A DNA stretch of 64,000 nt from positions 8,618,001 to 8,682,000 of the forward strand of contig CM114271.1 in NCBI GenBank assembly GCA_050084515.1, read 5' to 3'. The notes under the pieces were generated by a model, which worked only from the letters and a program-made list of their open reading frames with translations, made no database searches and was not told where the DNA came from. How positions within the stretch are numbered: the first letter of the stretch is position 1; each line of letters begins with the position of its first letter. Below are positions 9,790-57,687 of the stretch, one piece after another. A program made the position numbers and the translations under genes. The stretch is from Blasia pusilla. Its lineage: Eukaryota.

Positions 9790-10003
9790 GAGGAGGGTAT
9801 TTGAGTGTTAGATCTCTTTGGAGGGATTAGCACCCGGTTAGCCGCTATTTTGCAGGTAGAAAAGCGAGTGCACCAGTATCTATATGTGGAGAGTGATGAT
9901 GTTGCAAGGCGTGTCTCACTACGACATGTGGCAGAGTTATGCCTACATTTTCCCAACTTATTATCTGCGTCCGCGGTACAGGGGTACCAGAGTTCCCTAC
10001 CGA
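9790..10003 (+). pseudogene. C5 DNA methyltransferase domain of B1, N-terminal part (motifs I-II)
   Basis: VLDLFGGIS (SAM-binding motif I) and YLYVESDDVARRV; collinear with 63160-63360. Confidence 0.85.
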
Positions 10004-12364
10004 GACCAAAGCGCGGCAGGGTCAATTTCGAAACACCCTCGGAACCAGAACCCACAATTCAAGAGGACTCCGACGAGACGCCTCGTGCTAGCGATCACCG
10101 TCCTGCATTTTGTCTCATGTCCCAGACAGCCAACGACATGGTGTGGTTCCTGAATTTAGCTGTCCCAGTCATGAATCAACTTCAACATGTTCTCCACCTG
10201 GAAAACACAACGATGGTGGACGAGTATTTACAAGCCCTTGATGACCTCAACTGTAGGGCCCAAGCTTCGTCAGAGAACAAAGCACAACGCAAAGTGGCGG
10301 AACAAAATCTTCACCTGTGGGATCAAGAACTCGAAGACACGAAGTCCACGCTTCGCAGAGTTCAAAGCGACTTGGTCCAGAGTCAGTACGAAGCACGGAA
10401 CACACGCCAATGGGAGAGCTTGGCGATTAACCTAGAGTGTGGAGCTGATCAATTAGCTTCGCAGGTCAAGGAAGCTTCGCAACTTATTCAACAATATCGA
10501 CACCAGATGCATCGTGTTAGCAATGAATTCAAGAAATTGGCCACACAACATGCTCAATCTACGAAATTGCTTCAAGAACATCAAGAAACGAACAGAGACT
10601 TAGTGGCGTAGTGGTCAGAGGCTACAGGGAGGATCGTTGTCTTGGAGGCAGAACAGAAGCTACTCAACAAAGTACACTTAGATCCAGAAGATGTCAAGGA
10701 GTTAGTCGACGAAGCAAGCAAGAATTTTGAACAACAGATGAGCGAAGAGATTGACTATGTCAACAAACATTGGAAGCGCCAATTCGACAACCATACGAAG
10801 TCTCTCCCGGAAGTTGTTCCCAACCTCTCAATTACTTTTGAAGAAATACCATTATTTACTCCATTTGATGTCTTAGTCCAGAACAAAGTATTAGGAAGTA
10901 AACTAGTTGTTAATAAATCACGAGAAAGAATGCGCAATCACACCCCCAACATTATCAACAAACCTTCAACTATTCACGGTGGTTTTGCGCCTACATCTGA
11001 GTTTGATAGTTTAGAGGATACTTTTATGGAGTTAGAAGAAACATCCTGATGTGTTCGCCGGGGCGGCTCACATTTGAGGGAGCGGGTATGTGATACCCAT
11101 AATTTTGTACTTTTGAAGAAATATATCTTTTTATTCAACGAAGACTCTTGTACTTTATGATTTTGATTATTTATTATTATGAGGAGGAATGAGTAAGATT
11201 AAAGTGAATTACGAAGCTCCAAGGACAAGGCAGAGAGATAGAAAATCAAGGATTTGCCTAAGAGGAGAGGAGAATAGAATAACGAAGTCTCAAGACCCAG
11301 CAAGAAGCTTCGGAACTATAACGAAGCTCAACGAAGCTCTGTCTACAAAGTGCTTTGCTTTATAAAGAAGCATAATGATGCAGGAAGAAGAAGAGAAAGA
11401 AGTACTTCGCTCTTGTACGAAGCACCTGGAACCCGAACAAAGAATGAAGAGCTTCGTCTTCTGATCAGGAGAAAGAGCTTCCTCCTCAAGCGAACCAAAA
11501 GAGGTCCAGACTTAGCAGCAAAGCGAAGCTAAGATTGACAGTGATTTCAAGCGACACATAGTTAGAACAGTTAGAATAGGAAGAGACGCAACCCTTTGTA
11601 TCAATTTGGTAGTTATGACTATTTTGTTCTGCAAATTCATAGGGATCATAGGAAAAGCAAAGAGCACCATAGATCTAGGTAGTTACAAAAGTTGAAGAGA
11701 CACCAGCTTCATCAAGAACGTTTCGAATCTTTGGATCACTCCTCCTTCAAGGAGTATTTAAGAAAAATAGAAGTAGCTATCATTATCATTCTCTTACGAA
11801 GTCCTCATGCTGTAGGAATGGTCCGAGCAAGGGAGTAGTACCCTCTCGAGCTTGTATACACTTTGAAGCTTTCTCATTCTTGATGGAGTAGTAAAGCAAT
11901 CATTCATTCATTCTGATGTGCGATGTTTATGTCTGAGTATTCTTTTTGGGTCTATAGAGTGAAGAGTGAATGAGGCGAACCTTTCTCATCAATGGAATAA
12001 TCAACATAAAGATTGTAGGAAATTTGTTTGACAGAGAGTAGCCTGCCGAGACGGATTGAGTTCCGAAAGTAGGAGAAGCCAGCTTTCATGTTGAGGTCTC
12101 TGTGAGGTTTCTTGATATCGAGAGGAAATCTACCTGAGCATGCTGTCAATTCCACTAGAGAGAATTGAGAAAATAAACTTTGGTACTAAGAAAGATCTGA
12201 AGATATTGATACGACATTGAATATAAATCATACACATTTAAATACACCTATTACAACATAATTGTAATTTTGAACTCTCTTTTCATCAAAAAATGATCCT
12301 CCTGGGGATCGAACTCAGTAAACGATTGTAAAATAGAAACTCTTATACATTACATATAGCTACA
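10004..12364 (+). mobile_element. LTR retrotransposon family C, 3' fragment (coiled-coil extra ORF, PPT, LTR) inside the B1 methyltransferase
   Basis: Abrupt switch out of B sequence near 10004; Q/E/K-rich ORF to 11049 with one stop; purine tract GAGGGAGCGGG just before the LTR at 11089. Confidence 0.8.
11089..12364 (+). repeat. Family C LTR
   Basis: TGTGATACCC...ATAGCTACA; highly similar inverted copy at 38849-40094 and a fragment at 57508. Confidence 0.92.
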
Positions 12365-12384
12365 AACTTTTTTGTTGTCGCGGG

Positions 12385-13111
12385 TTGGCTGACACTTGGA
12401 CCAGGTTGATTTGGGAGATGTTGAGGATCTTACGATAGTTGCAGGAGCACATGTCTCCTTCTGGAGAATGTGCCGATCTTAGGAGACTCCAGGTAACGGA
12501 TGGTGACAAGTGCTCATCAGGTGCGTGCCTGGATTGGCCCAAAAATGTTATTGCATGTGGCAAGTATAGGTTCTAGAGCCCATCGCCCGCATCTATGGTG
12601 GACCAACTTGATGCCCCATGCAGTGTTACGAAGGACGTATGCGAGAGTGGAGCGCCCCTCCCATTTGTTAGTGGATTCCATTCTGGATCCAGGTCATCGC
12701 TCACAGGCAGTGAGGCATGATGATCGACCACCGTTGACTGTGGTCAACAGGATAGGCAAGCCGCAGGCAGCCTTTCCCACATTTGTGAGTTTTCTCGCTT
12801 CCTATGCATACAAGGAGGCCGGTCTTGGCTTGGTTTGGGATGACCAAGTTCAAAGGTTGGTGGAGCCCACCGCCAATGAGAGAGAGCGGGCGGTGGGATT
12901 TCCCATAGGAGTGACGGCAGTACCGTCAGTATCAGAGGCATCACGATGCCATGTCTTGGGTCAGGCGATGGACATCAACTGCTTGACATGGATCTTCAGC
13001 TTGGGAGTGGCTGAGCAGCGTCAGATGAGATCACGACAGATCACATTGGTTGCGTTGGTGAGCCCCATGCCTACCAAGACGGTGGAGGTAGTGGCTGGGG
13101 GCGAGACCTGA
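12385..13111 (+). pseudogene. C5 DNA methyltransferase domain of B1, C-terminal part (motifs VI, VIII, IX, X)
   Basis: LLENVP near 12460, SIGSRAHRPHLWWTNL, EPTANERERAVGFPIGVT and SRCHVLGQAMDINCL. These match the DNMT3-family pattern ENV / AHRARYFWGNL / EMERVFGFP..YT / RQRLLGRSW. Confidence 0.88.
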
Positions 13112-13309
13112 GGAGATCGACACACCAAGGGAGATTGGGAGAGACACCCTTGGACTTCTTGGGATGTTTTGCAAGTACGCCAGGAGATGATAGTCACAAC
13201 ATCATGCGTGGTTTTGAGCACTGCATGTGGAGGAGATCAGAGTTTGTAGTTGGCAATAGGAGAGCGGCCGAGTGTTGTTGTTCGAGAAGGGGTTGCACCA
13301 TAGCAACCA

Positions 13310-16300
13310 TTGATATCCGCGTCGGAGAGTCCTACCGTAGTCACGATGGAGACTTGGGAGCGAGATATGGGCCCTAAGCTCACAAGAGGAGAGCGGCGCC
13401 GGATACATCAATTCCTCATGAGTTGTAGGAGCTGCTTTGCATTTAGCATGGAGGATTTGGGTACGTTGAAAGGACCGGGGATCCGCATTGAGTTGTCGAG
13501 TGATACGCCGATCTTTCGGAGACCCTATAAGTACAGTGATATGGAAAGGGCTCTATTCAGAGTAGGAGCCAGGACTAGTGGAGATGTTGCATGGGGAGTA
13601 TGCATTTGCCATTGTCATGCCCGCCAATAAGGATGTACATGGCAACTAGATGGATAGGCGACTGTGTAGGGATTACTGACCTATCAATTGGCAAAAGAAG
13701 TCCAATAGGTATGCCATGCCCACCGTTGAGGAGATCTTTGATGCGATTGGTCACGCAAAGGTCTTCAGTTCATTGGATTTGCGAGCTGGATACCATCAGT
13801 TGCTTATCAGATTGGAGGACAAGCAGAAGACAGCATTTTGGGGCATCGATCCTCACGGGAAAGATTGTTTGTACCAGTGGCGGTTCTTACCATTTGGGTT
13901 AAAGAACGCCTCGACGGAGTTTCAAAGGGTCATGGATAGAATCTTGGATGGTGTGGATTTTGCTGTGTGTTATATTGATGACATTATAGTCTTTGGCGCC
14001 ACGGTTGAGGAGCATGAGCAACGATTGCAATTACATGGGCTGAAGCTACATCCAGGCAAGTGCAAGTTCTTCTACGACCTGATTGAGTACTTGGGTCATA
14101 CGATATACCCAGGGGGCCTTGGTGTTCAGCAGACAAAGGTAGAGGCTATCTCACGCATTCCATGCCCTACAGATGTGAGCCGTGCTCGCGCATTCATGGG
14201 ATTGGTGAACTTCTATCGGTGGTACGTCAAGGGATTCACTTCGATTGTGCAGCCGCTAACCTTGCTGACCAAGGTGGATCACAAGTGGCACTGGGCGGAT
14301 AAGCAAGAGCAAGCATTTCAGTTGCTCAAGGACAAGTTGACGTCTGCGCCCATCTTGAGGAGACCGATCACGGGGCGTCCTTTCCATTTGCACATAGATT
14401 GGAGCATGTTGGGGCTTGAAACAGTGCTCACCCAGCATGATGATGAGGGTAGAGAGTTCATGGTGGCTTACGCTAACTGCTCAAACAACGCTGTAGAGGC
14501 AAAGTACAGCTCGTATGAGGGTGAGTGCTTGGATGTAGTGTGGGCTGTCGCACATTTCAGGTGGTACTTATTCGGAAACCCCTTTACCATCATCACTAAT
14601 CATCAACCACTGAAGTGGTTGATAGAGTCCGACAAGCTTACAGGGAAGCTTGTGAAATGGGCTCTGTTGTTGCACGAGTATGATTTTCAGGTGGTACATA
14701 GACTTGGGACGCTTAACCAGAATGCAGATAGATTGAGTCGTAACCCGTGCCCGAGTTAGCGAGATGCGACTGGAGCTCGATGGCATGGAGAGAGTGATGA
14801 GGAGTTAGTGCCAGGATGGCACGCGACAGCCTATTTAGGCATGTTGGCTATGGAGAGCCAGAGTGTGGAGACTTCAATGGCAAGGTCTAGTGGAGAGTCC
14901 TTGGATCCTGAGGCTAGTGAGGAGAGCACATGTGGCCGAGATATTCATGATGATGGAGTAGTCTTGGAGTACCATCGTACTCGCAGCGTTGTGAGCACCG
15001 TGGGTGCTAGAGAGCGGGACCGGATCCTACAGCGGGCCAGACGGTTCCGTTGGGAGGGGACACATGTTTTGAGGATTTGGGAGGATGGCACTGTACGCAT
15101 AGTGCCGCAACCTTTGTAGAGAGCACAACAAGTGCAGCATGCCCAGGAGGAGTTGGGTCACTTTGGGGTGAAGCGGACATACAGCTTGCTCTAGATTCTG
15201 TATTGGTGGAGAGGCATGCAGACTGACGTTCAGCAGTTTGTTGCCAGATGCATGGTGTGTGATCGGGTCCGAGCATCGTTGAATGCTCCGATTCCACAGT
15301 TGCATCCATTACCTATCATGGGCTTAGGGTATAGATGGAGTTTGGATTTTGCAGGACCTTTGCCTTTGACGGAGCGTCACAATCGTTATGTGTTGGTGAT
15401 GGTTGAGCACTTCTCGAAGTGAATCGAGTTGGTTGCATTTCCTGACAAAGTGAGTGAGAGAGTAGCTTATGCCTTCCTTGATAGAGTGATGAGTCATTAT
15501 GGCACACCGGCTGAGGTGTTCATAGATCATGGTACCGAGTTTCATGGTGAGTTCCACGCCTTGTGTGATCAGGCGATGATCGACCACCACACAACTTCAT
15601 GAGATCATCTTGAGGCGGATGGATAAGCAGAGAGAGTTGTGCAGACGGTGAAGAGGGGTTTACGCAAGTATGGCTTGCAAAGAGGTCACGTAGGAGATTG
15701 GGATCTCCAATTGCCATGGTTGGCGATGGGATACATATTTACCAGGCACACATCCTTAGCATCTTTTTCCCCGTACTTGCTACTTTGTGGTCGAGAGCCA
15801 GATTTACCTGCGGCCATTTGTCGAGATGCTGGTGAGGTGCTGGACCTTTATGACCTAGATGTATGGATCCGAGCATGTTCTCAGAGGGCTAAGTTGTTTC
15901 GGAGAGTGATGCCCATGGCGTTTGAGACCTTGGCGATTGTGCATCATGGGGATACGTTGAGGTATGCAACTATTTGGGGTGGTGGTTATCAACCAACCAT
16001 TTAGAGGTTTCATCAAGGAGATTATGTCTACTTGCAGCAGACGGCACCCACGACGTTGGATGTGACTGCAGGGCGCACTATCTTGAGAGTGCGTGACGTT
16101 TTGCCATCTGGTATTCTCTTGCTGGAGGGACACGATGGTATGGTATGGAAGGACCATGTGCCTAATTTTGCGCCATGTCACCTTCCTAACATTGATGGTA
16201 CAGTAGATCCGAGCTTAGCAGTAGTTCCTATAGGCTTGCGTTGTATGTTGTGTGGTTCTGCTCGTGGTGCGGCCACAATGCTAGTATGTGATGGATGTTC

Positions 16301-16382
16301 GAGAGGTTGGCATATGGCGTGTCTGAAGCCACCTCTCATTGGGGTTCCTCGGGGACAATGGATGTGTCCCAGATGTACATAG
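13310..16382 (+). pseudogene. RT, RNase H, integrase and C-terminal PHD finger of B1
   Basis: SLDLRAGYHQ, LPFGLKNA, YIDD; RNase H YSSYEGEC and NQNADRLSR; integrase H2C2 (LGHFG...CMVC) and WSLDFAGP; C4HC3 PHD at the end. Confidence 0.93.
16242..16376 (+). other. PHD finger at the integrase C-terminus of B1
   Basis: CMLC-x10-VCDGC-RGWHMAC-LKPPL..VPRGQWMCPRC, a complete C4HC3 ligand set. Confidence 0.92.
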
Positions 16383-22170: not shown

Positions 22171-22654
22171 CACTAGTAGAAAAGGGGTCATTTTAAACCC
22201 ATATCATTGTGACTCATTTTACTTAAAGTCATTTTAATTACTCTTATTTACTCCGAAACCGATATTGTGACTTGAGAATTACTCACATGGTAGGGGAGTC
22301 ACAATTTGATATTTATTTAACAACATGAAAACATATAGGAAGCCACTTTAACTTGTATATCAATGTTTAAAACCCAGTCATGTAAAGAGCAAAATGAACA
22401 TTTTATTTCTTCTCTCTATCTTCCAAAGAATGACGTGGATCATCTAACCTACAACTACAGTAGTATGAAGAAAATGACTAAAACTTGTTAAAAGATAGAG
22501 AAAGAAGTAAGAGATATGAAGGTAAGGGAAATAGTGTTTAGGCCCTAAACCCTCTTGAGGTTCAAAAACCCTAACATCACTAGTACACATTTCCCCCCTC
22601 CCTCGTGCCCCAACTCTCTATCTCTCTTCCAACTTGTGACGGGTCGAGCTTCCT

Positions 22655-27720
<5,066 letters not shown>

Positions 27721-28399
27721 AAGTGTGAGTGGTGACCATAAAGCGTTGGTGCAGAGATTCAAGTGTTAGAACTTGGAGGGGTTCCACTCCAAGTTTTGAT
27801 ATCAAACAAACAAGTTTAGGTTTCACACTGGACGACAAGCCTTTTGGGAAAGAGAACGATGAGATTTTATAATCGTTGGTGGCTAGTAGAGCTTTGAAGG
27901 AGTCAGAGCATATAATAAGCAGGTATAAAAATCTGGAAGCTACGTTTGCCCTGGACGCGATTAAAAAGGTATGAAATCTGATTGAAATTCATGGGTTTTT
28001 TTCCTAGGAACTTATTGGATATCTTAATGGACATGTGCGTCATATAGTGCAATAACAAAAAACTTCCGTACAAAAAAAATCCCTCCTCAATATCAGAGAT
28101 CGCCTGTACCAATCCATGAAAAGATCCATAGGTGGATACTTGAGGCAGAGGTGGACGATATGTATGGTGACTTCTTTGTATACTTAGTTTTGAACTACTC
28201 TTTTGTACTTTAGTAAATATTTAGGGTATTAACTTGAATGGAGAGAGAAGTTTTGTTGTCATTAAATACCGGAATGTTGTAGCTTTGTGCACCATGGAGA
28301 GAGAAGTCTATAGAATGTAACATCCTTCATATCTCTGGATGGCATCAGAGTGATGGGGAGTGTTTCCTTTCAACCAATAGTCCAAAATGACTCAGGGTA

Positions 28400-28886
28400 C
28401 TTTTTGTCCAAATTAAGGAGCCTTCCTTTTGAAGTGAAGGTCAAGATCTTTACCATGAGCACGCCTACTAGTCTCTTGGACCGTATCCTTGCCCTCCCAT
28501 AATCTGCAAGGGCAAACATTTGTTACTTTCATGCTTACTCTGACCGTTATTCGACCCCAAATAAGCGACAAAGGCAGACTAGGAATTGGCTATTCCACTT
28601 AGAAGATCGCCACGTTTATGTGTGATTTGTAGACATTGTTATGTGGATGGAGGATAGAGGAGCACTATTAACATGGCTAATACTTGGGGTCACCCGCAAA
28701 GTCACTCTTCATATCTGTCATGATGGAGGGGGGATTCTCCCTGGGGGAGACAATCCCATTGTTAGGAAGGCACGATCCATCATTGAATATGCTAGTTCTA
28801 TTGGTGGCCACACGGTAGAGGTTATTCTTGAGTATTGTAATACTTGGGAAGTTGTAACCTCAGGGGACTTAGTATGCATTCGCTAA
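28400..28886 (+). pseudogene. Degenerate ORF in CACTA with possible F-box-like motif
   Basis: KLRSLPFEVKVKIF is in frame, through two stops, with ORF 28641-28886. Confidence 0.3.
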
Positions 28887-29286
28887 AGTCGTAGAACAAT
28901 TTGAGGGAAAATTTGCATATGTTGCCTAAACATATGCCGTAATGCTGGAGTATGGCAATGAGTTTGATCCGTAGCCTTACTTGAGGCCCTTCATATGGCC
29001 AATGGATAACATTTGTAATTGTAAACAATAAGAAAATAAGAGGATCCATTGTGAGAAAATAGAAAGATAAAATCACTGAAATTTTTACATAACTTAGAGA
29101 AACAAAGTAGCCTAGTCCGTCTGTGCGCTCACAGAAGAGCTTCGATGGAACCTGAACATGGAGATAACTCGACATACGAGAATGCGCAACCGCTGCGGCT
29201 CTCGACTATTTCACTACTTGGGAAACTAGGGGTTTTACCTGATTTTTCTTTGTTTCTATTAATAAAAAAAATTTGCAAAAGGGATT

Positions 29287-29394
29287 AGCGTTACTAGGAT
29301 TCCCTAAACCCTAAACCCTAAACCCTAACCCTATATTGCATAAGGGTGCCCCACACCCTCATGCAATATAGGGTTAGATAATCCTAGTGACGCT
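29287..29394. repeat. Inverted repeat with three CCCTAAA telomeric units in one arm
   Basis: AGCGTTACTAGGATT pairs with AATCCTAGTGACGCT, and CTAACCCTATATTGCATAAGGGTG pairs with CACCCTCATGCAATATAGGGTTAG. Confidence 0.85.
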
Positions 29395-30059
29395 ACTTCT
29401 GAAACCACCTACATCATATTACTATGACTCCTCCGACGTCTAAGTCGAAACCATCAATCTAGGATTCTCCTCTTACAAGGGGGCTGATCTGATTAATGGT
29501 GCTCAGAGAAGTGGATGTTGAGAATCCAACAGTTGCCTAAACATATGCCGTGATGTTGTAGTATGTCAAATCCGTAGCTTAATTTGAGGCCCCTCATGTG
29601 GCAGACGGATAACATTTGTAATTATAAACATGAAGACAATAAGAGGATCCATTTTTGCCAGTCATGAATTGAGTCACCGTTAGTCACCGTTATTTGTCTT
29701 CATTGATGGAATTGGGCTTATTTTGAGGGGGCGTGATGTGTGTACACTCTTGACCTTGGACGATAAAAGACGCTATTATAGGGATGTATGCAACGAAATA
29801 ATTAATAAGAAGTAATGATTTCTATAGAAACAATTGCTTCTTATGCTACTTAACTTTAACTTGTTCTATGTACATGTACCAAAGGATTGACTATTGGAAA
29901 TCCGAGTATCGTGAAGGCAGGAGGTAACCTCCACATCCATTGACATCCATTTTAAAGCTTTTGTTTCTCATGCTTGAATCAATATCCATTGAATTTCTAC
30001 ACCTAATAATAATCTTATTGTCTTTTGTCTCAAAATGTAGGAGTAACCAACGTACAAGG

Positions 30060-30713
30060 ATGGCGCGCCCAGAGTACCAGGCCAAGAAAACCCCCGAGGT
30101 GAGCACTTATGTGCCATATAGTGCACTCCAGGTTGTGTAGAAGGCAACCCACATTTGTGCAATCTATGAAAATGGGGAAGACCTGGTTGTTTGCGACTGG
30201 CCTTATGCCAGACACTTCCATGCAACTACACAATCAGCGGGGGCTATAGAGAACTCTTGTCTAGGGGTCAACCTCCCACCAAACCATGAGGGGAGCTGGT
30301 TGTGCCAGGATTGTGTGAAGCAAATCGCCAGAATGTGCCAAGTGTGGTCTAGAGGGGAGTTTTGCAGAGAGCAAGGATTCTCGGGTTCGTGTGAGAAAGT
30401 GCCCAGATACCTCTTGTGTGAGGTTTTTTTGCTTTACTTGTTTGCGTACGGGAGTGGAGTCTTGCCCCATGCATTATTTCCTAGAATGCCATAAGAATGA
30501 TGAGGAGTTGTGGGAGGACATGGTCTATTGCCCTAGGTGCCCCACTGCATGGCATTGGACTTGAAGAAGGCTATGAGCAAGGGTTATGCATGCGATCGGA
30601 TTATATATGACCATGCTGCATGTGGTGAGGATAGGTGGTGGTTCTATTGCCACCAACACAGAGTTGATCCCACACTTCAGACTCCTTTGAGAGATCATAT
30701 TTCATGGATTTGA
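30060..30713 (+). pseudogene. EDM2-like composite PHD-finger module carried by the CACTA
   Basis: Manual translation across a stop and frameshifts: ICAIYENGEDLVVCDWPYARHFHAT...WLCQDC..CAKCG...KCPDTSCVRFF...CPMH...YCPRCPTAWH...YCHQHRVDPTLQTPLRDHI. This parallels the EDM2 PHD region as recalled. Confidence 0.75.
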
Positions 30714-31138
30714 TTTTCAGGTTGGCGGATGAGAAATTTGTGTCTGAATAAAATTTCGTGGCATTTTGGTGGAGATTGCAGGGTAGCCACTTCTGATGTA
30801 AAGAGGGTCGTGGTTCTAAACATGCTTACTAGGTAGGTGGTATGACTTCGTATATAGACTCGTCATTACCTACCCTCTGATTTTGAGAGTTCCAATCTTC
30901 TGAAATTTTGATCGAACAGCCATAATTGCGAAACTATATAATATCAGGTTTTGCATCAACATTATGCAGTTTTTTTAATTTTGGAAGGATGAAATGTAAT
31001 CATGGTGGTTTCTAAAAGACTCTTGTGATTAGGCTCTTGATTAGGATATGTCTGGTTGCAGGTGGAATTCTCTATTCATTCGTCATCCATTGCCATATCC
31101 AATCATGCGAGTAGAGCTTTAGAGCTAGGTAGTCCATC

Positions 31139-32098
31139 ATGGAAAATCATTGGCAACACAGTACCAAAATGAGAATTGTTGAGCTTCTCCCACTCCCAAG
31201 TGGCGGTGTCTCTAAAGTGTTCACGTGTCATGAGAACTCACCCAGATGCGCTTTGGGTACGATGACAACCTCTCTTTTTGCAAGGATTGTAGCATGCATA
31301 ATAGCCTTCCTTGAATTGCCCCATGATGAATGGTGTCGACTTAAAACAAACTTTCTGAAATTGGGTAGGAGAGACACTGATTGTCTCCGTGACGCCACAC
31401 ATGGAATTTATGGGAATTGGGTAAGAGTTTTGGAGAATTTCATATGGACCATCCTGAATTCCCAGAGGAATGAACGGGGTGTTAAATATGTCCACAAAGA
31501 TTGGTTGTCCTTGTCCATCCAGGATGGAAGATTGCATGACCCTGAAGACCATGATCTATTTCAAAGTAAATCAAGCTCGGTGGCTATTTTGAGGGAAAAG
31601 AAATTGTATTGGAAGAATGTGAGGGAAGGGAAACCACTCCCAACTGGTCCGCCAGCCACTCCACATCCAACCATGTTTGGTCGGGTGAGGGTAGTATTTG
31701 TCCTTGACAATATATCTCAATGGAGGTTGAAATGGATGAAGAGAAAATTTCTAGAATGTGGTAGGCATCTGGATGACACAGTGGATAGGAATACCACCCA
31801 CTTGATTTTCCGATCCTTTTCCAAAGCCTGTAGACATCATGAAAAGACATTGATTCATTTGTGGATGTCATCTCAAGGTCTGTATGTGCTTCATTACAAC
31901 TGGGTCAAAGAATCCATTGAATTGGGGCACTTGGTAGAAAGTACTCCACATGACTTGATTGGAAACAAGCAAGTGAAACAGCCATACCGGATCAACCAAA
32001 TCTCTGGAGACATGGAGGAGCTTACAGATGAGTGGCAAACCACAGATGACGAAGAAATAGATTCCACTTGTTTGGATAGTTGCGAAAGTAGTACATAG
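31139..32098 (+). CDS. Intact 319-aa ORF with a C-terminal BRCT domain (~31673-31960) and acidic tail
   Basis: MFGRVRVVFVL...TTHLIF...VLHYNWVKESIELG follows the BRCT pattern (F-G start, THLI, W..E/DS) and resembles the plant DNA polymerase lambda BRCT. Confidence 0.7.
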   Translation: MENHWQHSTKMRIVELLPLPSGGVSKVFTCHENSPRCALGTMTTSLFARIVACIIAFLELPHDEWCRLKTNFLKLGRRDTDCLRDATHGIYGNWVRVLENFIWTILNSQRNERGVKYVHKDWLSLSIQDGRLHDPEDHDLFQSKSSSVAILREKKLYWKNVREGKPLPTGPPATPHPTMFGRVRVVFVLDNISQWRLKWMKRKFLECGRHLDDTVDRNTTHLIFRSFSKACRHHEKTLIHLWMSSQGLYVLHYNWVKESIELGHLVESTPHDLIGNKQVKQPYRINQISGDMEELTDEWQTTDDEEIDSTCLDSCESST

Positions 32099-32332
32099 AC
32101 CGTGTACTAAGACATGTATTTTTATATTGAATGTGGGTTCCATCTCATTGATTTTTCCTCAATACCAGGTTGCTCCAATATGGCCGCATGCAGTGACTAC
32201 ATTCCAAGTTGGCCAATCAATTGTATAAAGGTGAGGAATATCAGCAACCTCGTGCATTTTTTTTACCACCCTAAAAGTTTATAAACATATTTTTTTATGG
32301 TTGATAGTGAAGTTTGGTATCTTTAGGGTTTC

Positions 32333-33990
32333 ATGGATGTCCCACCTAGCCCTCCTTACTAGGGGAAAAATGCTCATCATCATGCACCCATAGGCAATCC
32401 TCCACATCGCTTCGGACCTAGAACAAGCAGGTTACCATTACAACATCCAAAACGGACCAGAGCTCGTGATTCCAAACTTTGGGATTGGGAGCAAGTCCTA
32501 GTGGGACACTCTAGAAGTGACCAGATGAGATGTCCTTGTGTAGCTTGCAATGGGTCTCGCACACTGGCCTTGCGGAATGTTTTCACTCACCTTCAAAAAC
32601 ACGGAAGGCATCCAGATAAAAGAGTTTCTGGAGTTCTAGGAGATGAGGACTCGTCTGATGAAGAGTTGAGGTCTGGATCAAACATTGCTTGTGCGGCTAG
32701 ACATGCACAATTTTTGGGACAAGCAATGGGCAACCTCGATGCTCGAGATGCAGGTGAGGCAGGTACCACACCCAAGGAGTTTGCATACAATAATCGTGAT
32801 GATGGGGTTGATGCTGAAGGTGATAGTGTTGATAATGGGATTGATGTGCAACGCATGGTCCGTGACATCTTCCAAGATCTTGATGCATTCTATGATGATG
32901 TCGAGAGCATGGAAGACATCATTGATGCAGCCAAAGAGGCTAGAGAGGACGCACATGATATTGGGCAAGAAGAGGACGAGCAGGGATGGATGTTTGGGTC
33001 GCATGAAACTGTTTCTTATGCATGACAGCCTTTGTTCCAAGGCTCTAAGTGTACAAAGTTGGCCTTTGTACTCATGTTGATGAACATCTGTGGGAATCAT
33101 GGTGTCCGAGCTATGTTTGTTTCAAGATTACTTGCATTCTTGAAGACAACCGTCTTTCCTATTGGGAACACGGCTCCTGGAAATAAGTACGAGGGAACTA
33201 AATTATTGTCAAGTCTTGGATTGAATTACAATTCCATTCATGCTTGCCCTGATGGCCATGTGCTCTTCAGAGGAGAGCATGCAAATCGATCAAGTTTCCC
33301 GCTATGTGGACAACAAAGGTATAGGAATGTGGGCAAGTCCATGTAGCCTACGAAGGTACTTCGACATTTTGAAATCATTCCTAGATTGAAACAGATGTAC
33401 AGGAGCCCAAATATTCCAAAGTTGATGACTTGGACATGCAAGAACAAGAGTATCGATGGCTTGTAGTGGCACATCAGAGATTCAGAACATTGGAGATTCA
33501 TTGACTAGAGATGGCTAGAGTTTGCAAGAGAGATAAGGAATGTGAGACTTGGCCTCTCGACCGATGGATTCAATCCATCTGGAGACAAGAACAATGTATA
33601 TTCTTGTTGGCCTATAACCATGTTGAATTACAACCTCCCTCCGTGGTTGACTACTAAGAAGTTTTTTTGTCTTATTGGTTTTTCTTATCCCAGGCCCACA
33701 ATCTGCTCTTTCTAGGAATATAGACGTTTGGATAGCTCCTCTTGTGGATGAGTTGAAGCGCTTGTGGTACGAAGGCATTTGGATCCATGATGTGATGTAA
33801 TGGGTTCGGAGACCAAACCCATTCAGGCTAAAACCCTAATTGGTATTGACTTTGGGAGATTATGCAACCCACGACATGATTTCCGGTCAGGCAACAAAGA
33901 GGTATTTGGCTTGTACAACATGTGGCCCCAATTTCACTGGTCAGCATTCTAGACCCTTGAGGAGAATGAAATACACTAGACATCGATGTC
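32333..33990 (+). pseudogene. CACTA Tnp2/TnpD-type transposase, 3'-truncated
   Basis: MRCPCVACN, LGLNYNSIHACP, RNVRLGLSTDGFNP, YSCWP..NYNLPPWL, LIPGP, IDVWIAPLVDELKRLW. Confidence 0.92.
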
Positions 33991-34925
33991 TAGTATATTT
34001 CATGCTCCACTCGGACGAGTTGCACATTTACGTCATTCTTGGACTCTGGTTGGACTGCTAGGGTGTTGACATACTTTACCAACAACCGCGGGACCTTGGG
34101 CTCCGGGCATTCCACTGTAGTGTGCCCGCCCTTCTTGCAATTTCCGCACAATGGATTGAGTCCTACTGGCCGCTTTGGAGTTGGGCAATTATGAGCCTAG
34201 TGGTCAGCTGCCCCGTAATTATAACAACAATTCCTTTTTATGGGTGGCGTGAAGGCTACGGCGCCCATAATCTGTCTCAGGGGTCTTTGTTCCCTGTATT
34301 CTAGAGGCACATATCAGGTGATCCAACTTCGTCCGAGATTAGATGGTGGCACAGCTTGGATTGCATAGCACCCTTCCCACTGTTCGGGTTCATACCACCC
34401 TTCTTCTGTAGTTGGATCTTCCTGGATCCAACGTAAATCCCTCTGATTATGACATTCCTGAGCAGTATGCCTTTGGGTTCCGCAAGTATTGCACCAGATG
34501 TTGGGCCTCATCAAACCTGGTCGTCTTCAGGAATCCTTCTGGGCCGTAAGATGTACCTTTAATTCCGCCTTTTTTTTACTTAGCTATTCAATGGCAGACT
34601 TGCCTGCCTTCCTCGCTGTCCCCCTCATTGGACTTTCCGACCGTTGGGGAAGGTGCTTTGTTGGTCGGGTTTTCCTTCCGTGCTTGGGAGAGTGGTGGTG
34701 CGTGATTTTTCTTTTCCGCTTAGATTTTAAATATTTTTCGGAGTCATAGAGGATTCCGTGTGTGTGGAAGACGCTTCGTCCTTCAACGAAGCACTAGTTT
34801 GCGAATAACCTCGTCATTGGTGATGCCATCTTCGTATTTTACGGGACTTCTCTTAGGCCTCGTACGCCTCTACGGAGGCTATGACTGCTTCCAAGGAATC
34901 TTGTTGGCCTCGCCGGCATTACCGG
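33991..34925 (-). mobile_element. Family A gag fragment (A3)
   Basis: RPNIWCNTCGTQRHTAQEC and EEGWYEPEQWEG; homologous to ~4500-5330 and 46950-47800. Confidence 0.85.
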
Positions 34926-37900
34926 TGTCGTATAGTAAACTCAACTAGTATGTAAACTCCTTCATCATTAAGTGTTAAATAGAGTTTCATTAGTATTAAG
35001 TAAATTGGCTTAGAAAAAGGAAATTCTTATGTTTAAACCTCTTTATGATGCCTCTTTTATGCGGGCCTAATTTTAGAAAAGGAGGTGATAAATAAAAGAT
35101 GACTTTATAAGAGTAAAGTAGTTGCTTTAATGAAAAGCAAAAGTAGTCTTGGTTGGTGGTTAGATTAGTTGGGGTAATTTGGAAAGTATCAATTGGGTAA
35201 AAAAAGGATATTTTGGAAGAGATAAGAGGAAATCTACTTGTGTCAAAATGTGATTGGCTAAGCCTTGAGAGGAAGCCATGTGGCACAAGATAAGATAAGC
35301 TCTATTTCGTACTCTTGTGGATCCTTTGTGAGTATATAAAGAAGAGGGACCTTCAAGGGTTCATCACCTTCTATTCCACATCTTTAGTCTCTCGTGTCTC
35401 TCTTGAGTGTATGGCTTTGGGATTGCTTGCTCTTCCAATGAGAGTGGATCACCCCTCTTGGGAGAGTAACTTGATCATGGTCTATTCTTCGAGAGGTTTC
35501 TAGAGTATGGTGTGTGTGTGTGGAGATGAGAGGTTTGTTACCTTAGAGAATTTTAGTCACACAAAAATAGTGAATATTTTGGCTTGTTACTTCCCCAATG
35601 AGAGTGGATTACCCCTCTTGGGAGAATAATTCCGCCAAAATCCATTCTTGAGGAGAGTAAAGAATGTCTGTCAAGCATGGATAGGGGTGGAGCACGAGTT
35701 GTGTCCGACTTTCCTTTCCTCAATCCATACCATGTCAAGGTACTCTTTGTAGATAGACACTGGTTTACTCGATATTTAGTTTATCACTTTGGGGAGGCGT
35801 TCATGAACCAGGTCATGCAATCTCCAACTCCGGTGATTCTTCCTATCGTCACATATGGAAGGACATGGGATTGTACTTTGTATGTCCTTATATAGCAATC
35901 CATAGATGTCAATAGGCCTACTCAAGTAGGGTTTAACAGTAGTTGTGCTATCTTCCTCGTGTACAAGCGTAAAATAGTTTATAGGGATTTTATAGTTAGG
36001 AATTTTGGGGTCTGATGTTACGAAGAAGTGATCGCCTCGGCACTTCCATTTGTGATACCTGTTGTGAGAGAATGGAGAGTATACATCATAATTTTGTATT
36101 GAAAAAGGAGAACTTCTTAAAGAGTTCACCTTGCATCAACCGCATCTACCGCAACTAGAAGGCCCGCCCTTGCTCGAAGAAAGGCTCTCGACACGACAAA
36201 TGGTGCTTCCACTGAGAGATCTTTGAGGCGGTAGATTTTGTTTGCAAGTTGGAGTCTTATCAAGATGACTACTTTTCGTAGTACTTTATCAATGGAAACT
36301 CAGGGAGCTTATGATCTTCTCCAAACTTTGACAACATTGTTGAGCCAACAAGGAGGAGTTCACATAGGAGAGCAAAGATCAATAAGGGCTCTTCAAGCGA
36401 TTGTAGAGAAGTTGGGGAGATATGATGGGAGGAACATCACCAAGTATGTTCGAGAGTATGTCTGTAAGATGGAGGTAAATCATGTATCCAAAGGTGATAC
36501 GGTGTCAAGTTTTGAGTGAGCTGTAATACCAGAGATTCGTAGTCAAGTGAAGAAGTTGAGAGCAGAAAATCCGACCTCGTGGGAGGAGTATGAGCAGTTG
36601 CTGAAAGCAGAATTCTTCGATGATGATGTGGATCGGATGACTAAGAGGAGTTTTTTAGAATGGATAGAGCAACGTCCAGGGAAGGGAATGACTCCAAATG
36701 AATTATTGCGTGAGTTTGAGAAGCGGTTTTTTCTGCTTTCTTCTTCCGAAAGAGCAACTCTAGACTTGAGGAATACTGAGTTATTCCTTGAGGCGGCTGA
36801 CGAGAATTTGGAGGACAAGCTTTTCATAATGTTGGCGGACAAGACCAAAGAAGGAGGTGTTAGCACTGATTGGAAGAAAGTGGAAGAAGCTGTTGCTATC
36901 CTTACAAAGCAAAATCGAAGTAGAGGTAGAACCGCACTATTCAAGTCGGAGGTATTAATTTCAAATCCATTGCCTAAGCCCGTTTCAACAAAACTTGAAG
37001 ATTCCGCTATAGATGAGTTGGTGAAAGGTTTGAGAGAATTGAGAGTAGAAATGGCAGAGCTTAAACTTGATAGGAATCCTAGTGTTGGTGCTCCTTCGAC
37101 AAGTAGGAACTTTGTGAGAAGATGTATATGGTGTGATAGTGTTGAGCATCAACGTCGAAAATGTGAGGAGTTTTCAGAAGCTCTTAGGAATGGAATAGTA
37201 AACTTCAAAGATGGGAAGATTCATTCAACGCATAATGGTATGCCGTTGAATACCAACTTTGGTAGAGGAGGAATGAAAGGCTTAGTAAGAAGTCAAGTAG
37301 GAGTTGCCACTACGACATTAGATTCTGATACCTTTGCAGTAAAAATAGAAGCGCCTATTATATCTGTAGCTAAAAGTGAATCATTAGAATTTCCTCGAGA
37401 AGTTATGATACGAGGGGCAGAGACTATCCATCATCTGACTGGATGGGATGATCCAGTGGAAGCTGGGTGTGTTAAAGCATACCTAATACAAGAGAAACAT
37501 GTGAGTTGGCAAGATGCTAGTGTGGAGGAGAAGGGAAGACGCGACAATGATGGTGTTGATGCTGAGGAAGCCGTAAGAAGAGCAAGGACCTTAAGAAGAA
37601 AAGGACAATCGGAGGCGCAGCCATCAAGAGAAGAAGGACCTTCCACATCTGAATTTGTGAGGGATTCTCATGTCAAAGAAACAGGTACGAAGGAGAACAA
37701 ATTGAGGTCTCCTCAGTAGACCAAGGATAAGCCTTCTACATACAAGCTGCAGTCTGATATCGAGACAAGCACAAATTTAAGTTTAAATTTGTGGAGAATT
37801 CAAGGACGCAAAAATAGAGTTTTCTTTAAGGGAAGTCTTGGGCATAGCCAAACAAGACTTTCATGAGTTGATCATAGATGTGATCAAAAGGAAGAGGCAG

Positions 37901-38140: not shown

Positions 38141-40094
38141 TCAATCTAGTTGATTTGGTCGGCTCCTCGTCCCCCGAGTCCCCAAAGGAGTTCTAGGTTA
38201 ACTCTTTGTACGACTGCAAACTGGGAGGAGACGTGGTGGGGAGCGTATTCTTGTCCCTCTTCTTGCTCTTGGGCTTCGTGCGAAGACAAAGACTGGGAGA
38301 CACCCCAGGCGGTCTCCAAGACGGGTGATCTTCTTGTTGCTTACTACGTCGATCAGCTTGCTGATCTTGCGAAGAGGTCCAGGAGACTTCCATGAGTCCC
38401 TTATGGGATTCGGGAGCTTACTTCCGCACCCACGGTCGCCACAAGGTAGGGGTCCATGGAGGGAAATTAAATCTTCCTAATTCCTAAGCCTACAGGCGTG
38501 TGCAGGTGCTCTTAATCTTCTTGCCAAGTTTTCCTCCCATAAAGAGAAGTACCCGATCATCACCAAGTACAACTGACGTTCATGTGCGAAGCACCGTTCG
38601 GCGATTGGTTTTTTGACAATACTAATTAATTGTTCTATCTTTTCTAGCACCAATGCAGAAAACCGGTTGTTATCTTCTTTCATCCATTGTCTGAGGGGGA
38701 TAGCTAGAGATAGCAGATAGTCTTTAGTAAGAACTAGTTGGTTGGGTCTTCTAGGATACGAGGCTTCTTTCCCCGCTCCTGGATTCCCCATGTGTCTCTC
38801 TCCCTCTTCAGAAAAGCTTATAATCCCCGGCAGCGGCGCCAAAAAGTTTGTTGCTATATGTAATGTATAAGAGTTTCTATTTTACAGTCATTTAATAAGT
38901 TCGATCCCCAAGAGGATCATTCTTTGATGAAAAGAGAGTTCGAAATTACAATTCTGTTGTAATAGTTGTATTTAAATGTGTATGAGTTCTATTCAATGTC
39001 TTATCAATATGTTCGGATCTTTCTTAGTACCAAGGGATCTTTTCTCAATTCTCTCTAATGGAATTAACAGCATGCTCAGGTAGATTTCCTCTCGATATCA
39101 AGAAACCTCACAGAGATCTCAACATGAAAGCTGGCTTCTCCTACTTTCGGAACTCAATCCGTCTCGGCAGGCTACTCTATGTCAAACATATTTCCTACAA
39201 TCTTTATGTTGATTATTCCATTGATGAGAAAGGTTCGCCTGATTCACTCTTCACTCTGCAGACCCAAAAAGAATACTCAGACATAAGCATCGCACATCAG
39301 AATGAATGAATGATTGCTTTACTACTCCATCAAGAATGAGAAAGCTTCAAAGTGTATACAAGCTCGAGAGGATACTACTCCCTTGCTCGGACCATTCCTA
39401 CAGCATGAGGACTTCGTAAGAGAATGATGATTATGGCTTATGTTTTGCTTCTTAAATACTCGCTGGAGTAGGAGTGATCCAAAGATTCGAAGCGTTCTTG
39501 ATGAACCTGGTGTCTCTTCAGCATTTGTAACTACCTAGATCTATGGTTCTCTTAGATTTTCCTACGATCCCTGTGAATCCGCATAACAAAACTGTCCTAA
39601 CTACCTATCTGATACAAAGGGTCGCGCCCTTTCCTAGTCTAACTGTTCTAACGGTATGACACTTGAAATCACTGTCATTCTTAGCTTCGCTTCATTGACT
39701 TCTTGAGGACAAAGCACTCCATTCTTTGTTCTTGTTTAAGGTGCTTCGTGCTTCGCACTTCGTACAAGAGCAAAGTACTTCTTTCTCTTATTCTTCCTGC
39801 TTTGTTATGCCTCGTTATATAGCAAAGCACTTTGTAGACAGAGCTTCGTTAAGCTTCGTTATCGTTCTCAAGCTTCTTGATGGGTCTTGAAACTTCGTTA
39901 TTTTATTCTCCTCTCCTCTTAGGCAAATCCTTGATTTTCTATCCCTCTGCCTTGTCCTTGGAGCTTCTTGATTCACTTTAATCTTACTCATTCCTCCTCA
40001 TAATAATAAATAATAATCAAAATCATAATGTACAAGAGTCTTTATTGAATAAAAAAAAATATTTCTTCAAAAGTACAAAATTTTGGGTATCACA
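38141..40094 (-). mobile_element. Family C 5' fragment: LTR 38849-40094, PBS, start of internal ORF
   Basis: The LTR is an inverted copy of 11089-12364; PBS TGGCGCCGCTGCCGGGGA at 38824-38841 is Athila-like; ORF 38477-38842 follows. Confidence 0.88.
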
Positions 40095-46805: not shown

Positions 46806-49800
46806 CTAAATTCAATATAACAACATTACTTTCAAGATGATAGATTTTACTGATCAACCTATTAATTTCCTCCCACACTAGGAAAAATAAGATAAAGAGA
46901 GTCGTCCTAAATATTCACATCCAAGGAATGTGATATCAGGATCATAGATATAGAGGGCAGCGTGACTCATTAGCACCCGTCATTGCCTCTACCGGAGCTT
47001 ACTAGGCCTCAGAAAAATCCAGGAGGACGCGCAAGAAGAGACATTATCGGAAGAGGACAAACTCTTCATCAGAGGAGTCTGAGTCTTCGTCTGACTCCTC
47101 ACATATCTTGTCAGGAAGCACTAGCAGTGAAGACTCAGAGTCTGAGGAAGACTCTAAGGGCAAAAAGAAGAAGAAATCAAGATGCCTTAGACACTCTTCG
47201 TCCTTGGGAAAAGGACGTAGGGATCAGAGCATCGCAAGTTGATGAGTCCTGCTCGTAAGACAGAGAAGGATGGGGAAAAGTTGGCCATCAGTGAGTTGAA
47301 AAAACAAATGGCCGATTTAAAAGTACATTTGGCGGCTCAAAAAGACCCCTAAGGTCTTATGTGGCCTAATATATGATGTACTGCTTGTGGGACTCAGGGG
47401 CATATAGTGCCAGAGTGCCCACTGAAACAAGATTTACGTTGGATGGAAGAAGAATCCTCAAAGGAGGAGGGGTGGTATGAAGCCGACCAGTAGGAAGGAT
47501 GTTATGCGGTTCAATTAGTTCTTGAGGCTAGTACTTCTTGCAGCTCAATCTCGAGATACGTGCCGCCAAAATTTGGAGAGCAAAGGCCTATACGACAAAT
47601 CATTGGACCCGCAGCGTTCACCCCACCAATTAAGAGGAATTATTGTTAAAATTACGGGGCAATCGATAATTGGGCAAACAATGGTCTTAACCCAAAATGA
47701 CCCGTGGGTTTGAATCCCCTATGTGGAAATTGTAAGAAGGGAGGACATACTGTAGTAGAATGTCCATAGCCTCAAGTTCCCTGGTTCTTTATCAAATATG
47801 TCACCACCCCACCGTCCCCCACCGAAGCCAATAATGATGTTAATGTGCAGCTAGTACGTGTGGAAGATATTACCTCACCCAGGAAGGCAAGGAAGGTGAC
47901 AATTGTAGAAGAAGGCCCAAAAATGAAGATTGAAGAAGAGTCCTCCGATTGGCCCGAAGACGTTCTCAACAAGGTCTTCACAATGAATATCAGGTCCAAG
48001 TCTAAGAAGAAGACTGTGAGGATGAAGACCCCAGAGTCTTCATCTTCGCAAAGTGTTTCGTCTACAAAGAAAGCGAGTGAGACATTTTGAGCATGGAAAG
48101 CTGTTCTAAAAGGCAAGGAGGACCCGACTGTTGATTGCAATCATCCGAAGTACTTCTACCCAAAAGTTGAGAAGCATGTCCGTAATCAAGTTCACAAAGA
48201 ACAAGCAAGTGGAGTCTTCGCACATGGCGTCTAACCCCATCACAAAGAAGGAAAAGTAGAGACCACTGTCGCTTCACCCTTGGTGATGGAAGCTTACGAC
48301 TTATTGAAATATTTGGCTACCAGTCCGGCAAAGATATCTTTATTGCAATTATTCATGGATAACCCCATTTATGGGAAAATACTCCACCAGTGGAAGGTTG
48401 GACGTAAGAAGGAGCGTGCAAAGAAGCTCCCGAGGTTGAAGACCTGGGTGCCCTGGAAGTGGAAGTAGAGATTGAAGGATAGACCATCAAAAAGGTCCCT
48501 ATAGATTCTGGAAGCAGGATCAACATCATGACAGAGCAAACTACTCAAGCCTTGGGTTACACTAAATATGAACCTACAGATAAATACTTACGCTTTCTTG
48601 ACCAGTCTTGCAAGCGACCTTTGGGGCAACTCACTCAAATCCCCAACATGATAGGGGGAGTGTTATTTCTCTTGGACTATCTTGTCCTTCAGCCTTTGAC
48701 AGTCACCGGTTACCCCCTGCTTATTGGGAGACTGTGGCTCTATGGAGCTCAGGATAACACGGATTGGAAGAGACAAAGATTAACTTTCCAAGCACCGTAC
48801 AGTACCCCAAAGAAGTTGGTGAAATTATCATGGAAATCTCGGCCTTCTCAAGGAGAGACACCGACCACAGATGAGGGGTATACCTCATATCAAGACCAGA
48901 CAGTTGACACAGAGTCCTCGTCCTATGTGTGCTACTTGGAGTGTTATGAGATAGATAAAGAGTACCTACAACTAGAACAAAGTAAGTCCTTTCTAGGAGA
49001 GGAGCCATCTGGGCTCACTACATATCAGTTCACATAGAAGATGGTGCAGGAGAAAGACTACGAAGAAATCCTTATCACTGACACTAAGGCTTTGCGTCTA
49101 TCCACAGATTTTTCTGCGTCTGAACTTTCACAATATAAAACTTTGCTTTCGAAGTACCTTGTTGTGTTTGCCCACACCATGCATGAGATGAGAGGAGTGC
49201 GAGCCAAGTATGGAGAACATAGAATTGATTTGAAACCTGACGCACTTCTTGTGCAAATAGGTGAGTATAGGTTAAACCCAAAGTACTCTTTAATGGTCAA
49301 AGACGAAATTGATGAGAGGTTGGAAGCTGGAGTCATCTATCCGGTGCTCAATAGTGAATGGGTATCCCCCATAGTCATTGTTCCGAAGAAGAAGACATGG
49401 AAGATCCGAGTATGTCAAGATTCTAGGAAGCTTCATGTGGCCACCCTTAAGGATCACCACCCCTTGCCCTTTACGGACACTATTTTAGATAAGGTGGTCG
49501 GCCATGAAGGCTATACCTTCTTGGACGGGTATTCTCGTTACAATCAAGTATCTATCAGAGAGAGGGACCGAGCCCTGACTACCTTCACCACGGATTGGGG
49601 TACTTTTGCCTATCGAGTGATGCCTTTTGGGTTGTGTAATGCCCTGGCCACTTTCCAAAGAAAGATGATTGCTATCTTCCAAGACTATTTACGAAGATTC
49701 GTAGAGATCTTCCTATATGACGTTTATGTCTTCAACTCGGCCAAAGATCATTTGTAGAAGTTAGAGCTAACCCTGGCTCGGTGCCGAGAAGTGCAGCTAT

Positions 49801-57507: not shown

Positions 57508-57687
57508 TATGATACCCATAATTTTGTACTTTTGAAGAAATATATCTTTTTATTCAACGGAGACTCTTGTACTCTATGATTTTGATTATTATTTATTATT
57601 ATGAGGAGGAATGAGTAAGATTAAAGTGAATCAAGAAGCTCCAAGGACAAGGCAGAGAGATAGAAAATAAAGGATTTGCCTAAGAGG
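57508..57687 (+). repeat. 5' fragment of family C LTR
   Basis: Near-identical to 11089-11265. Confidence 0.9.

Follow-up and report, generated by a model that had tools for sequence, protein, structure and literature searches.

Plant transposons capture pieces of host genes, VANDAL elements encode a protein that undoes their own silencing, and EDM2 is a host reader of the heterochromatic marks on transposons that lie within genes. In Arabidopsis, EDM2 has been described as binding H3K9me2 and as recruiting ASI1/IBM2 and EDM3/AIPP1 to heterochromatic introns (PMC7529245). Its PHD fingers resemble those of NSD1, with the last of them following a C4HC2H pattern (PMC3776765), and its C-terminal region is given in the literature as ELP/methyltransferase-like. 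Here we describe a stretch of 64,000 nucleotides from the Blasia pusilla assembly GCA_050084515.1 (contig CM114271.1, positions 8,618,001 to 8,682,000 of the forward strand; hereafter the window), in which a small, decayed open reading frame (ORF) for three PHD fingers of EDM2 type lies upstream of the remnants of a CACTA (En/Spm) transposase. An initial annotation, made from the letters of this stretch, had proposed that a CACTA element carries an EDM2-like PHD module here as a candidate anti-silencing cargo. Our preferred interpretation, to which we assign a probability of roughly 0.55, is that positions 30060-30713 hold a dead copy of a small intronless EDM2-module gene, that this gene is a fixed component of a multi-copy CACTA family, and that the family has been kept by selection, its intact protein acting as a histone reader.

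The Cys/His array at 30060-30713 was recovered at the coordinates given by the initial annotation. Its reading starts in frame 0 with an ATG at 30060 and runs to 30329 (MARPE...CAIYENG...RHFHAT...CQDCVKQIA), continues in frame +1 over 30331-30561 (ECAKCG...RKCPDTSCVRFFCFTCL...CPMH...YCPRCPTAWHWT), and resumes in frame 0 from 30564 (KKAMSKG...FYCHQHRVDPTLQTPLRDHISWI), ending at a TGA at 30711-30713. The ORF is broken in three places over 654 bases, by one in-frame TAG and two frameshifts, of which the first is a one-base shift near ~30330 and the second a deletion of 30562-30563 that destroyed the codon of a ligand Cys in finger 3 and put the frame back to 0. Counted over the 26 alignment columns that hold Cys or His in at least six of nine relatives, the window copy retains 22 of its conserved ligands and has lost four, through Cys to Tyr changes at 30165-30167 and 30204-30206, a Cys to Phe change at 30478-30480, and the deletion just mentioned. 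In this state the copy is unable to make the protein and is dead. The Pfam models matching the window pieces are three NSD-type PHD models in the expected order, and the last finger, which ends in YCHQH, fits the published C4HC2H pattern.

The relatives of this ORF came from an exhaustive HMMER search of 1.84 billion proteins with the frame +1 piece of 81 amino acids (aa) as query and a threshold of E <= 0.001. Four proteins were matched (E 1.9e-12, 3.6e-12, 9.8e-6 and 1.0e-5), all of them short (165-245 aa), with NSD-type PHD models in a triple-PHD arrangement, and together with the cluster mates P0005 and P0006 they make up a family of six, P0001-P0006, drawn from JGI/IMG, Logan and ENA. None of the six carries an informative name, three being called "hypothetical protein". 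When the three pieces of the window were joined for alignment, with X at the breaks, the joined module matched P0002 at 43.6% identity over 220 aa (172 bits) and P0005 at 45%. The start and stop of the window ORF coincide with the ends of the family proteins (MARPE at the start, as in P0002; RDHISW and then a stop at the end), the stop lying three codons past RDHIS as it does in the relatives. This alignment from start to end indicates that the window ORF is a decayed member of the stand-alone triple-PHD family and that 30060-30713 are the true limits of the gene, and, as the joined pieces align end to end with intact relatives, the Cys/His array is far beyond chance. Since the relatives are called as single ORFs, the intact gene would be small and intronless, its predicted protein of ~190-245 aa consisting solely of the three-finger module and the TPxRDH tail. 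On these points the initial annotation, which had spoken of a stand-alone, compact, intronless and now disrupted ORF, was borne out.

The family as a whole is strongly diverged, at 28-46% identity to the window copy or P0002 (31-46% to P0002 itself), and 16 columns are nevertheless invariant across the nine relatives. P0002, P0003, P0005 and P0006 have uninterrupted frames and have kept their Cys/His ligands except for one Tyr in P0003. Two members have the look of decaying copies: P0001, whose C-terminus is scrambled, and P0004, in which four ligand columns hold Tyr or His. The three variants of cluster 1 share at least 90% identity and sit on three contigs, which suggests that the family is multi-copy elsewhere too. 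Open frames, kept ligands and 16 invariant columns at 28-46% identity argue for past purifying selection on the stand-alone family, which would then have been maintained as a protein-coding gene; neutral decay to such a divergence would be expected to have filled the frames with stops. Neutral evolution of all copies as dead captures had been named as a case that would speak against the initial proposal; the family does not have the appearance of such neutrally decaying captures. As a separate observation, Tyr has taken over the position of finger 1's second Cys, giving CAIY, both at residue 10 of P0003 and at 30165-30167 of the window; the two stand apart in the tree described below, and their common Tyr could reflect convergent TGT to TAT decay or a tolerated variant.

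The closest named relatives of the module are EDM2 proteins. A family profile built from six relatives was searched against 1846 candidate proteins of 430-2000 aa at E <= 0.001, and it matched three of them, all lycophyte and EDM2-type: P0007, a Diphasiastrum protein of 1384 aa (E 1.5e-27), P0008, named "protein ENHANCED DOWNY MILDEW 2 isoform X1" by NCBI, from Selaginella (E 1.5e-23), and P0009, a second Diphasiastrum protein (E 5.5e-23). The precomputed annotation places PF26055 and PF22908 on all three. P0002 matched the Selaginella EDM2 P0008 with E 2e-29 and 35% identity over 192 aa, from VCAICDDGGDL, which contains the first CxxC of finger 1, to RDHI. The window module itself scored 91.7 bits against P0007 (34% over 222 aa), 84.3 against P0008 and 72.4 against P0009, bit scores being the measure here as the corresponding E-values refer to a database of nine sequences. 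In the Protein Data Bank (PDB), the same family profile found NSD3 (E 6.5e-8, profile positions 23-163) and NSD2 (E 2.2e-7), far weaker than EDM2. The earlier description of the module as EDM2-like is therefore upheld, the best named matches being EDM2-type and collinear with the window down to TPxRDH and those to NSD2 and NSD3 much weaker.

EDM2 and the window family share the three fingers and their order, and align collinearly over the whole stretch between the first CxxC and TPxRDH, at 32-36% identity; the tail motif reads TPLRDHI in the window, TPLRDHL in P0007 and TPRRDHI in P0008. They differ in what follows, the EDM2 C-terminal region with PF26055 being absent from the window family, whose ORF ends at 30713 here, so that stand-alone relatives of 165-245 aa stand against EDM2 proteins of 797-1384 aa. 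Three derived traits are common to the family including the window copy, namely the stop after RDH(I/V)S, a Cys where EDM2 has His in finger 2 (FFCFTC; alignment column 160), and the lack of the linker of 11-19 residues that precedes finger 3 in EDM2. Unlike EDM2, moreover, the window gene is multi-copy and adjoins a transposase. The N-terminal PHD cluster of NSD1, NSD2 and NSD3 (PDB 7crp, 7cro and 29hg) resembles the module in that the Pfam models matching the window are NSD-type, whereas the window protein has neither PWWP nor SET, is from a plant, stands alone, and is much less similar to the NSD proteins than to EDM2. In a maximum-likelihood tree the seven stand-alone rows split from the three EDM2 rows with support 100/100 and the window grouped with P0002 (89/92), in a tree that holds only three EDM2 sequences, all lycophyte, and neither dates nor places the origin of the family. 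The module is thus EDM2-type but neither an EDM2 orthologue nor a fresh fragment of a host EDM2 gene, and the gene family appears old, having diverged from host EDM2 to ~32-36% identity.

The link to the transposon comes from adjacency and from read depth. The PHD gene, an open 321-codon ORF and the transposase remnants lie on one strand in that order, with the PHD gene on the 5' side and the transposase remnants beginning 1.65 kb downstream of its stop. The remnants comprise a Transpos_assoc match of 18.8 bits and a Transposase_21 match of tnp2 type at 33509-33715 (E 8.1e-19, 68.1 bits, cut-off 28.6), followed by a second Transposase_21 piece at 33840-34061 (E 1.5e-4). The match stops at position 173 of 213 of the profile, and a minus-strand gypsy gag fragment begins at ~33990, where the element is cut. 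About 2 Gb of raw whole-genome reads (run X12) were mapped on 26500-35500 at a likeness of at least 85%, and the two orientations were summed (Table 1). Twelve of the 13 bins over 30112-34024 lie at a depth of 39-67 and the remaining one at 106. No read agrees with the window at any element site listed, 29 of 29 differing at 30072, for instance, and 50 of 50 at 30446, in a table of the best-supported differences beside which a further 692 base-difference and 31 indel rows exist; the reads therefore come from other copies. Since the depth of the PHD ORF equals that of the transposase, the PHD ORF is part of one multi-copy CACTA unit, and the PHD gene, the 321-codon ORF and the transposase are one unit repeated many times, probably in tens to hundreds of copies.

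Raw reads from three RNA runs (X15-X17) were placed on the same region. In all three, read pairs whose first mate lies on the minus strand covered the PHD bins at a depth of 1.2-2.7, those with a plus-strand first mate at 0-0.12, and the depth ended within the bin 30714-31014. Eight of the ten bins over 31015-34024 had no reads, and one run gave the last two a depth of no more than 0.85. DNA contamination would cover the unit evenly, so the signal on the PHD bins represents RNA. By the convention for stranded libraries this RNA would be plus-strand, that is, sense to the PHD gene, a reading with which the data agree without proving it; over the plus-strand long interspersed nuclear element (LINE) upstream, the same orientation is in excess in most bins, most clearly at 26801-27101 (136 vs 286 in X16). 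The RNA reads listed within the PHD ORF have at least 15 differences from the window, and the expressed copies are accordingly at least 10% diverged from it. They could be other copies of the transposon or a host paralogue of the stand-alone family. Host EDM2 was also considered as the source and rejected, because a protein identity of 32-36% could not give read matches of at least 85%.

Several results weigh against the interpretation of the window ORF as a conserved component of a CACTA family. Every Pfam match of the PHD pieces is below its gathering score, and weak matches to the NSD-type models also come from an ordinary PHD finger at another place in the window, so that Pfam alone is insufficient to settle the finger type. 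The first word-based homologue search, made with the first PHD piece, came back blank, and in the ESM Atlas the middle piece led to IBR and not to PHD; with scores below 0.9, this was taken to reflect a general richness in Cys. For P0002, AlphaFold gave a poor model from a nine-sequence alignment, with a mean predicted local distance difference test (pLDDT) score of 49.8 and 58-84 for residues 104-227, and Foldseek gave no match for it at E <= 0.001; its best sub-threshold matches were the tandem-PHD readers JADE1/BRPF1 PZP and the PHD-C5HCH of NSD2/NSD3. The RNA depth is low and the diverged reads may stem from a host paralogue, just as P0001-P0006 themselves could be host genes. Terminal inverted repeats of CACTA type, arrays of subterminal repeats and target duplications were looked for in the window and not found. 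Plus-strand ORFs with 50 aa or more were listed for the sequence before the PHD gene and for that past 34000, 117 in all, and the 97 of them that were scanned included none continuing the transposase (the other 20 lie in the gypsy pol region at 48483-51546 or past 62734). With no termini, and with the 3' part of the element absent from the window, the placement of the gene inside the element rests on adjacency and read depth alone. The original claim that CACTA carries the module is thus sustained as regards the same-strand transposase at equal depth, and lacks the termini or target duplication that would bracket it. Single PHD pieces of the window produced only chance matches among solved structures, a metagenome scan with the family alignment found no relatives, and no second copy of the element was found in the window.

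The main rival explanation holds that a host gene, a truncated EDM2 paralogue, was captured whole by a CACTA element and that the transposon copies have since decayed neutrally, the conservation and the RNA belonging to the host gene. CACTA elements do capture host sequence, as in Pack-CACTA (PMC13317346), and a separate host source would predict what is seen in the RNA, namely listed reads with at least 15 differences from the window and coverage of the PHD part only; the three breaks of the window copy fit as well, and P0001-P0006 may belong to the host. On the other hand, the cargo comprises a whole gene, start and stop included and AATAAA close by, and is no fragment, its depth equals that of the transposase, so that it is no one-off in a non-autonomous derivative, and the database relatives themselves look multi-copy and decaying (the cluster 1 variants, P0001 and P0004). 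We therefore hold whole capture of a host gene to be possible, though somewhat unlikely.

Two further explanations concern the partnership of the PHD gene with its neighbours. RAG2 recognizes H3K4me3 through its PHD finger on behalf of the RAG1 recombinase, and the integrases of chromoviruses are targeted with the help of chromodomains. By analogy, the reader, instead of countering silencing, might direct or license transposition at marked H3 chromatin together with the transposase and perhaps the BRCT-like ORF between them, an idea that draws on the three ORFs of one strand in one co-repeated unit and on another element of the window, in which a canonical PHD finger (PF00628, E 6.8e-12, 16005-16382) comes right after an integrase-tail-like frame of 125 aa without a Pfam match. 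Against such a targeting factor, RNA reads cover the PHD ORF only and not the transposase or the 321-codon ORF, leaving no sign of co-expression in the three runs, and we find it quite improbable. It is more improbable still that the PHD copy has nothing to do with CACTA and merely sits beside a truncated transposase among nested repeats. LINE, gypsy and other repeats, with insertions nested in them, do make a mosaic of the window, and termini enclosing both the PHD gene and the transposase were not found; but the depth is even over 30112-34024, sharp changes being confined to 34025 and the nested insert, and two unrelated repeats would need to have equal copy number and to be contiguous, which makes a chance neighbourhood very hard to credit.

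Returning to a gene kept by selection within the CACTA family, it can be hypothesized how its protein would have served the element. By analogy with the PHD modules of EDM2 and the NSD proteins, the intact stand-alone protein would bind modified histone H3 tails. Without the downstream region of EDM2 it would occupy the marks without recruiting the partners of EDM2, and would hence be a competitor or decoy; alternatively, it might tether the element's own proteins to marked chromatin. The transposon would gain either way. An anti-silencing or decoy role of the cargo, as first suggested, may be entertained on this analogy. In its full form, in which an autonomous CACTA lineage has long carried a selected and separately expressed EDM2 PHD module that competes with EDM2/ASI1/AIPP1 at H3K9me2 chromatin or tethers element proteins there, the proposal is a tentative one that we consider unlikely.

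Table 1. Features of the PHD gene and its surroundings in the window, with summed genomic read depth
Feature	Position	Strand	Summed depth	Remarks
Decayed 218-codon ORF, predicted stand-alone triple-PHD protein of EDM2 type	30060..30713	+		End-to-end alignment with P0002, P0005, P0006
In-frame TAG	30138..30140	+		Gln in 5 of 5 aligned relatives
PHD finger 1, PHD-1st_NSD type	30150..30314	+		Two zinc ligands changed to Tyr; Pfam 20.4 bits, E 5.8e-4, cut-off 27
PHD finger 2, PHD_NSD type	30328..30450	+		Frame +1; Pfam 17.2 bits, cut-off 23.9
Variant PHD finger 3, C4HC2H	30487..30659	+		Ends YCHQH; one ligand Cys to Phe (30478-30480); Pfam PHDvar_NSD 15 bits, cut-off 27
Conserved tail RVDPTLQTPLRDHISWI and stop codon	30660..30713	+		TPxRDH motif common to EDM2 proteins P0007 and P0008, which run on further
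AATAAA, candidate polyadenylation signal	30747..30752	+		34 nt past the stop
Open 321-codon frame (stop to stop), possibly tandem-BRCT	31133..32098	+		Between PHD gene and transposase
CACTA (En/Spm) transposase remnants	32363..34061	+		Transpos_assoc, Transposase_21; with stops and frameshift
Co-repeated unit by read depth	28306..33990	+		5' limit uncertain, between 27720 and ~28660
Nested insert, unrelated high-copy repeat in 5' region of unit	28908..29531	.	522-716	Loose ends 29070, 29225, 29531
LINE			275-638	
Upstream bins	27704-28305		~14	
Upstream bins	28306-28907		34-40	
Nested repeat bins	28908-29509		522-716	
Upstream bin	29811-30111		26	
Two PHD bins	30112-30713		43.5, 58.6	
Bin past PHD stop	30714-31014		44.2	
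Four bins with 321-codon ORF	31015-32218		105.7, 51.1, 39.1, 45.7	
Six transposase bins	32219-34024		41.2, 56.7, 67.2, 55.8, 43.0, 44.2	
Gypsy sequence	past 34025		92-1204	

The 321-codon ORF remains open although the neighbouring ORFs of the same copy are broken. Three weak independent leads suggest that it possibly encodes tandem BRCT repeats, none amounting to a significant family: a Pfam match to BRCT_2 (E 0.17), the ESM Atlas, in which nine of the ten best family-bearing matches are BRCT, all with scores below 0.9, and the PDB, with the tandem BRCT of microcephalin at E 0.02 and the BRCA1 BRCT at E 0.17. A word-based search found no homologues and a metagenome scan no relatives, and a single-sequence AlphaFold prediction gave no fold (pLDDT 33.5). 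No RNA reads fell on this ORF in the three runs.

Other repeats of the window are recorded here as observations in their own right. The nested repeat at 28908-29531 contains, besides a 24-nt hairpin, a short run of plant telomere-like (CCCTAAA)n at 29305-29330. Its transcription is strongly biased to one strand, and its RNA reads swap 29269-29390 for 17 other letters. The LINE spans ~22600-27720 and closes with a (TC)n tail; it matches RVT_1 at 25841-26617 (E 2e-23) and is abundant in RNA in both orientations, with depth up to ~1200. Its 3' motif with (TC)n recurs at ~22.8 kb, and for this recurrence and its LINE-level depth the sequence CACTACTTAATGAGTACAC(TC)n at ~27650, tried as a CACTA terminus, was rejected. 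A retroelement at 9805-16382 and 62589-64000 (+) includes at 62960-64000 a segment resembling C-5 cytosine DNA methylases (PF00145, 21.9 bits, cut-off 22), with a homologous counterpart at 12497-13111. At 9805-16382 the same retroelement has reverse transcriptase and RNase H at 13680-14759 (E 1e-20 to 1e-27) and, right after the 125-aa frame at 15627-16004, the canonical PHD finger mentioned above. To our knowledge, retrotransposons with a DNA methyltransferase have been reported only from a few algae and protists. Finally, inverted repeats of 183 nt with 93% complementarity occur at 39910-40092 and 57510-57692, separated by 17.4 kb; they may mark both ends of a large DNA transposon or represent one repeat present twice in opposite orientation.

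In the literature searched, which consisted of titles and the beginnings of abstracts with subscription journals and supplements outside its scope, we found no report of a CACTA or other DNA transposon with an EDM2-type or PHD reader gene, and a 2026 review of plant gene capture mentions neither "PHD" nor "EDM2" (PMC13317346). If the preferred interpretation is true, a transposon with a complete, conserved and separately transcribed EDM2 reading module would represent a new kind of transposon accessory gene and would allow the encounter of mobile elements with histone-based silencing to be approached directly. In the tentative full form of the proposal given above, its product would also be a transposon-encoded chromatin factor of a sort so far undescribed in plants.

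Among the systems that are described, VANC of the Mutator-like VANDAL elements is likewise a transposon-encoded accessory protein apart from the transposase that could act on the chromatin of its element (PMC13317346). The likeness is one of analogy only: the targets of VANC are DNA motifs in its own element and those of a PHD module are histone tails, and the transposon superfamily differs. The Pfam scan of the window pieces (E <= 1), with which no direct sequence comparison to VANC was combined, showed no relation to VANC and returned PHD-type and unrelated zinc-finger families only. Fungal DNA transposons with TET/JBP dioxygenases also place a gene of an epigenetic pathway beside a transposase, but there the cargo is an enzyme acting on DNA methylation in fungal hosts, and in the window it is of the histone reader type (PMC12730594). 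Closest in transposon type are Pack-CACTA and other gene-capturing CACTA elements such as Tgm-Express, which like the unit described here are CACTA with sequence derived from host genes (PMC13317346; PMC6379663, PMC1947982). Those elements, however, are non-autonomous and carry gene fragments, whereas the window holds a complete ORF beside a transposase and at the copy number of that transposase.

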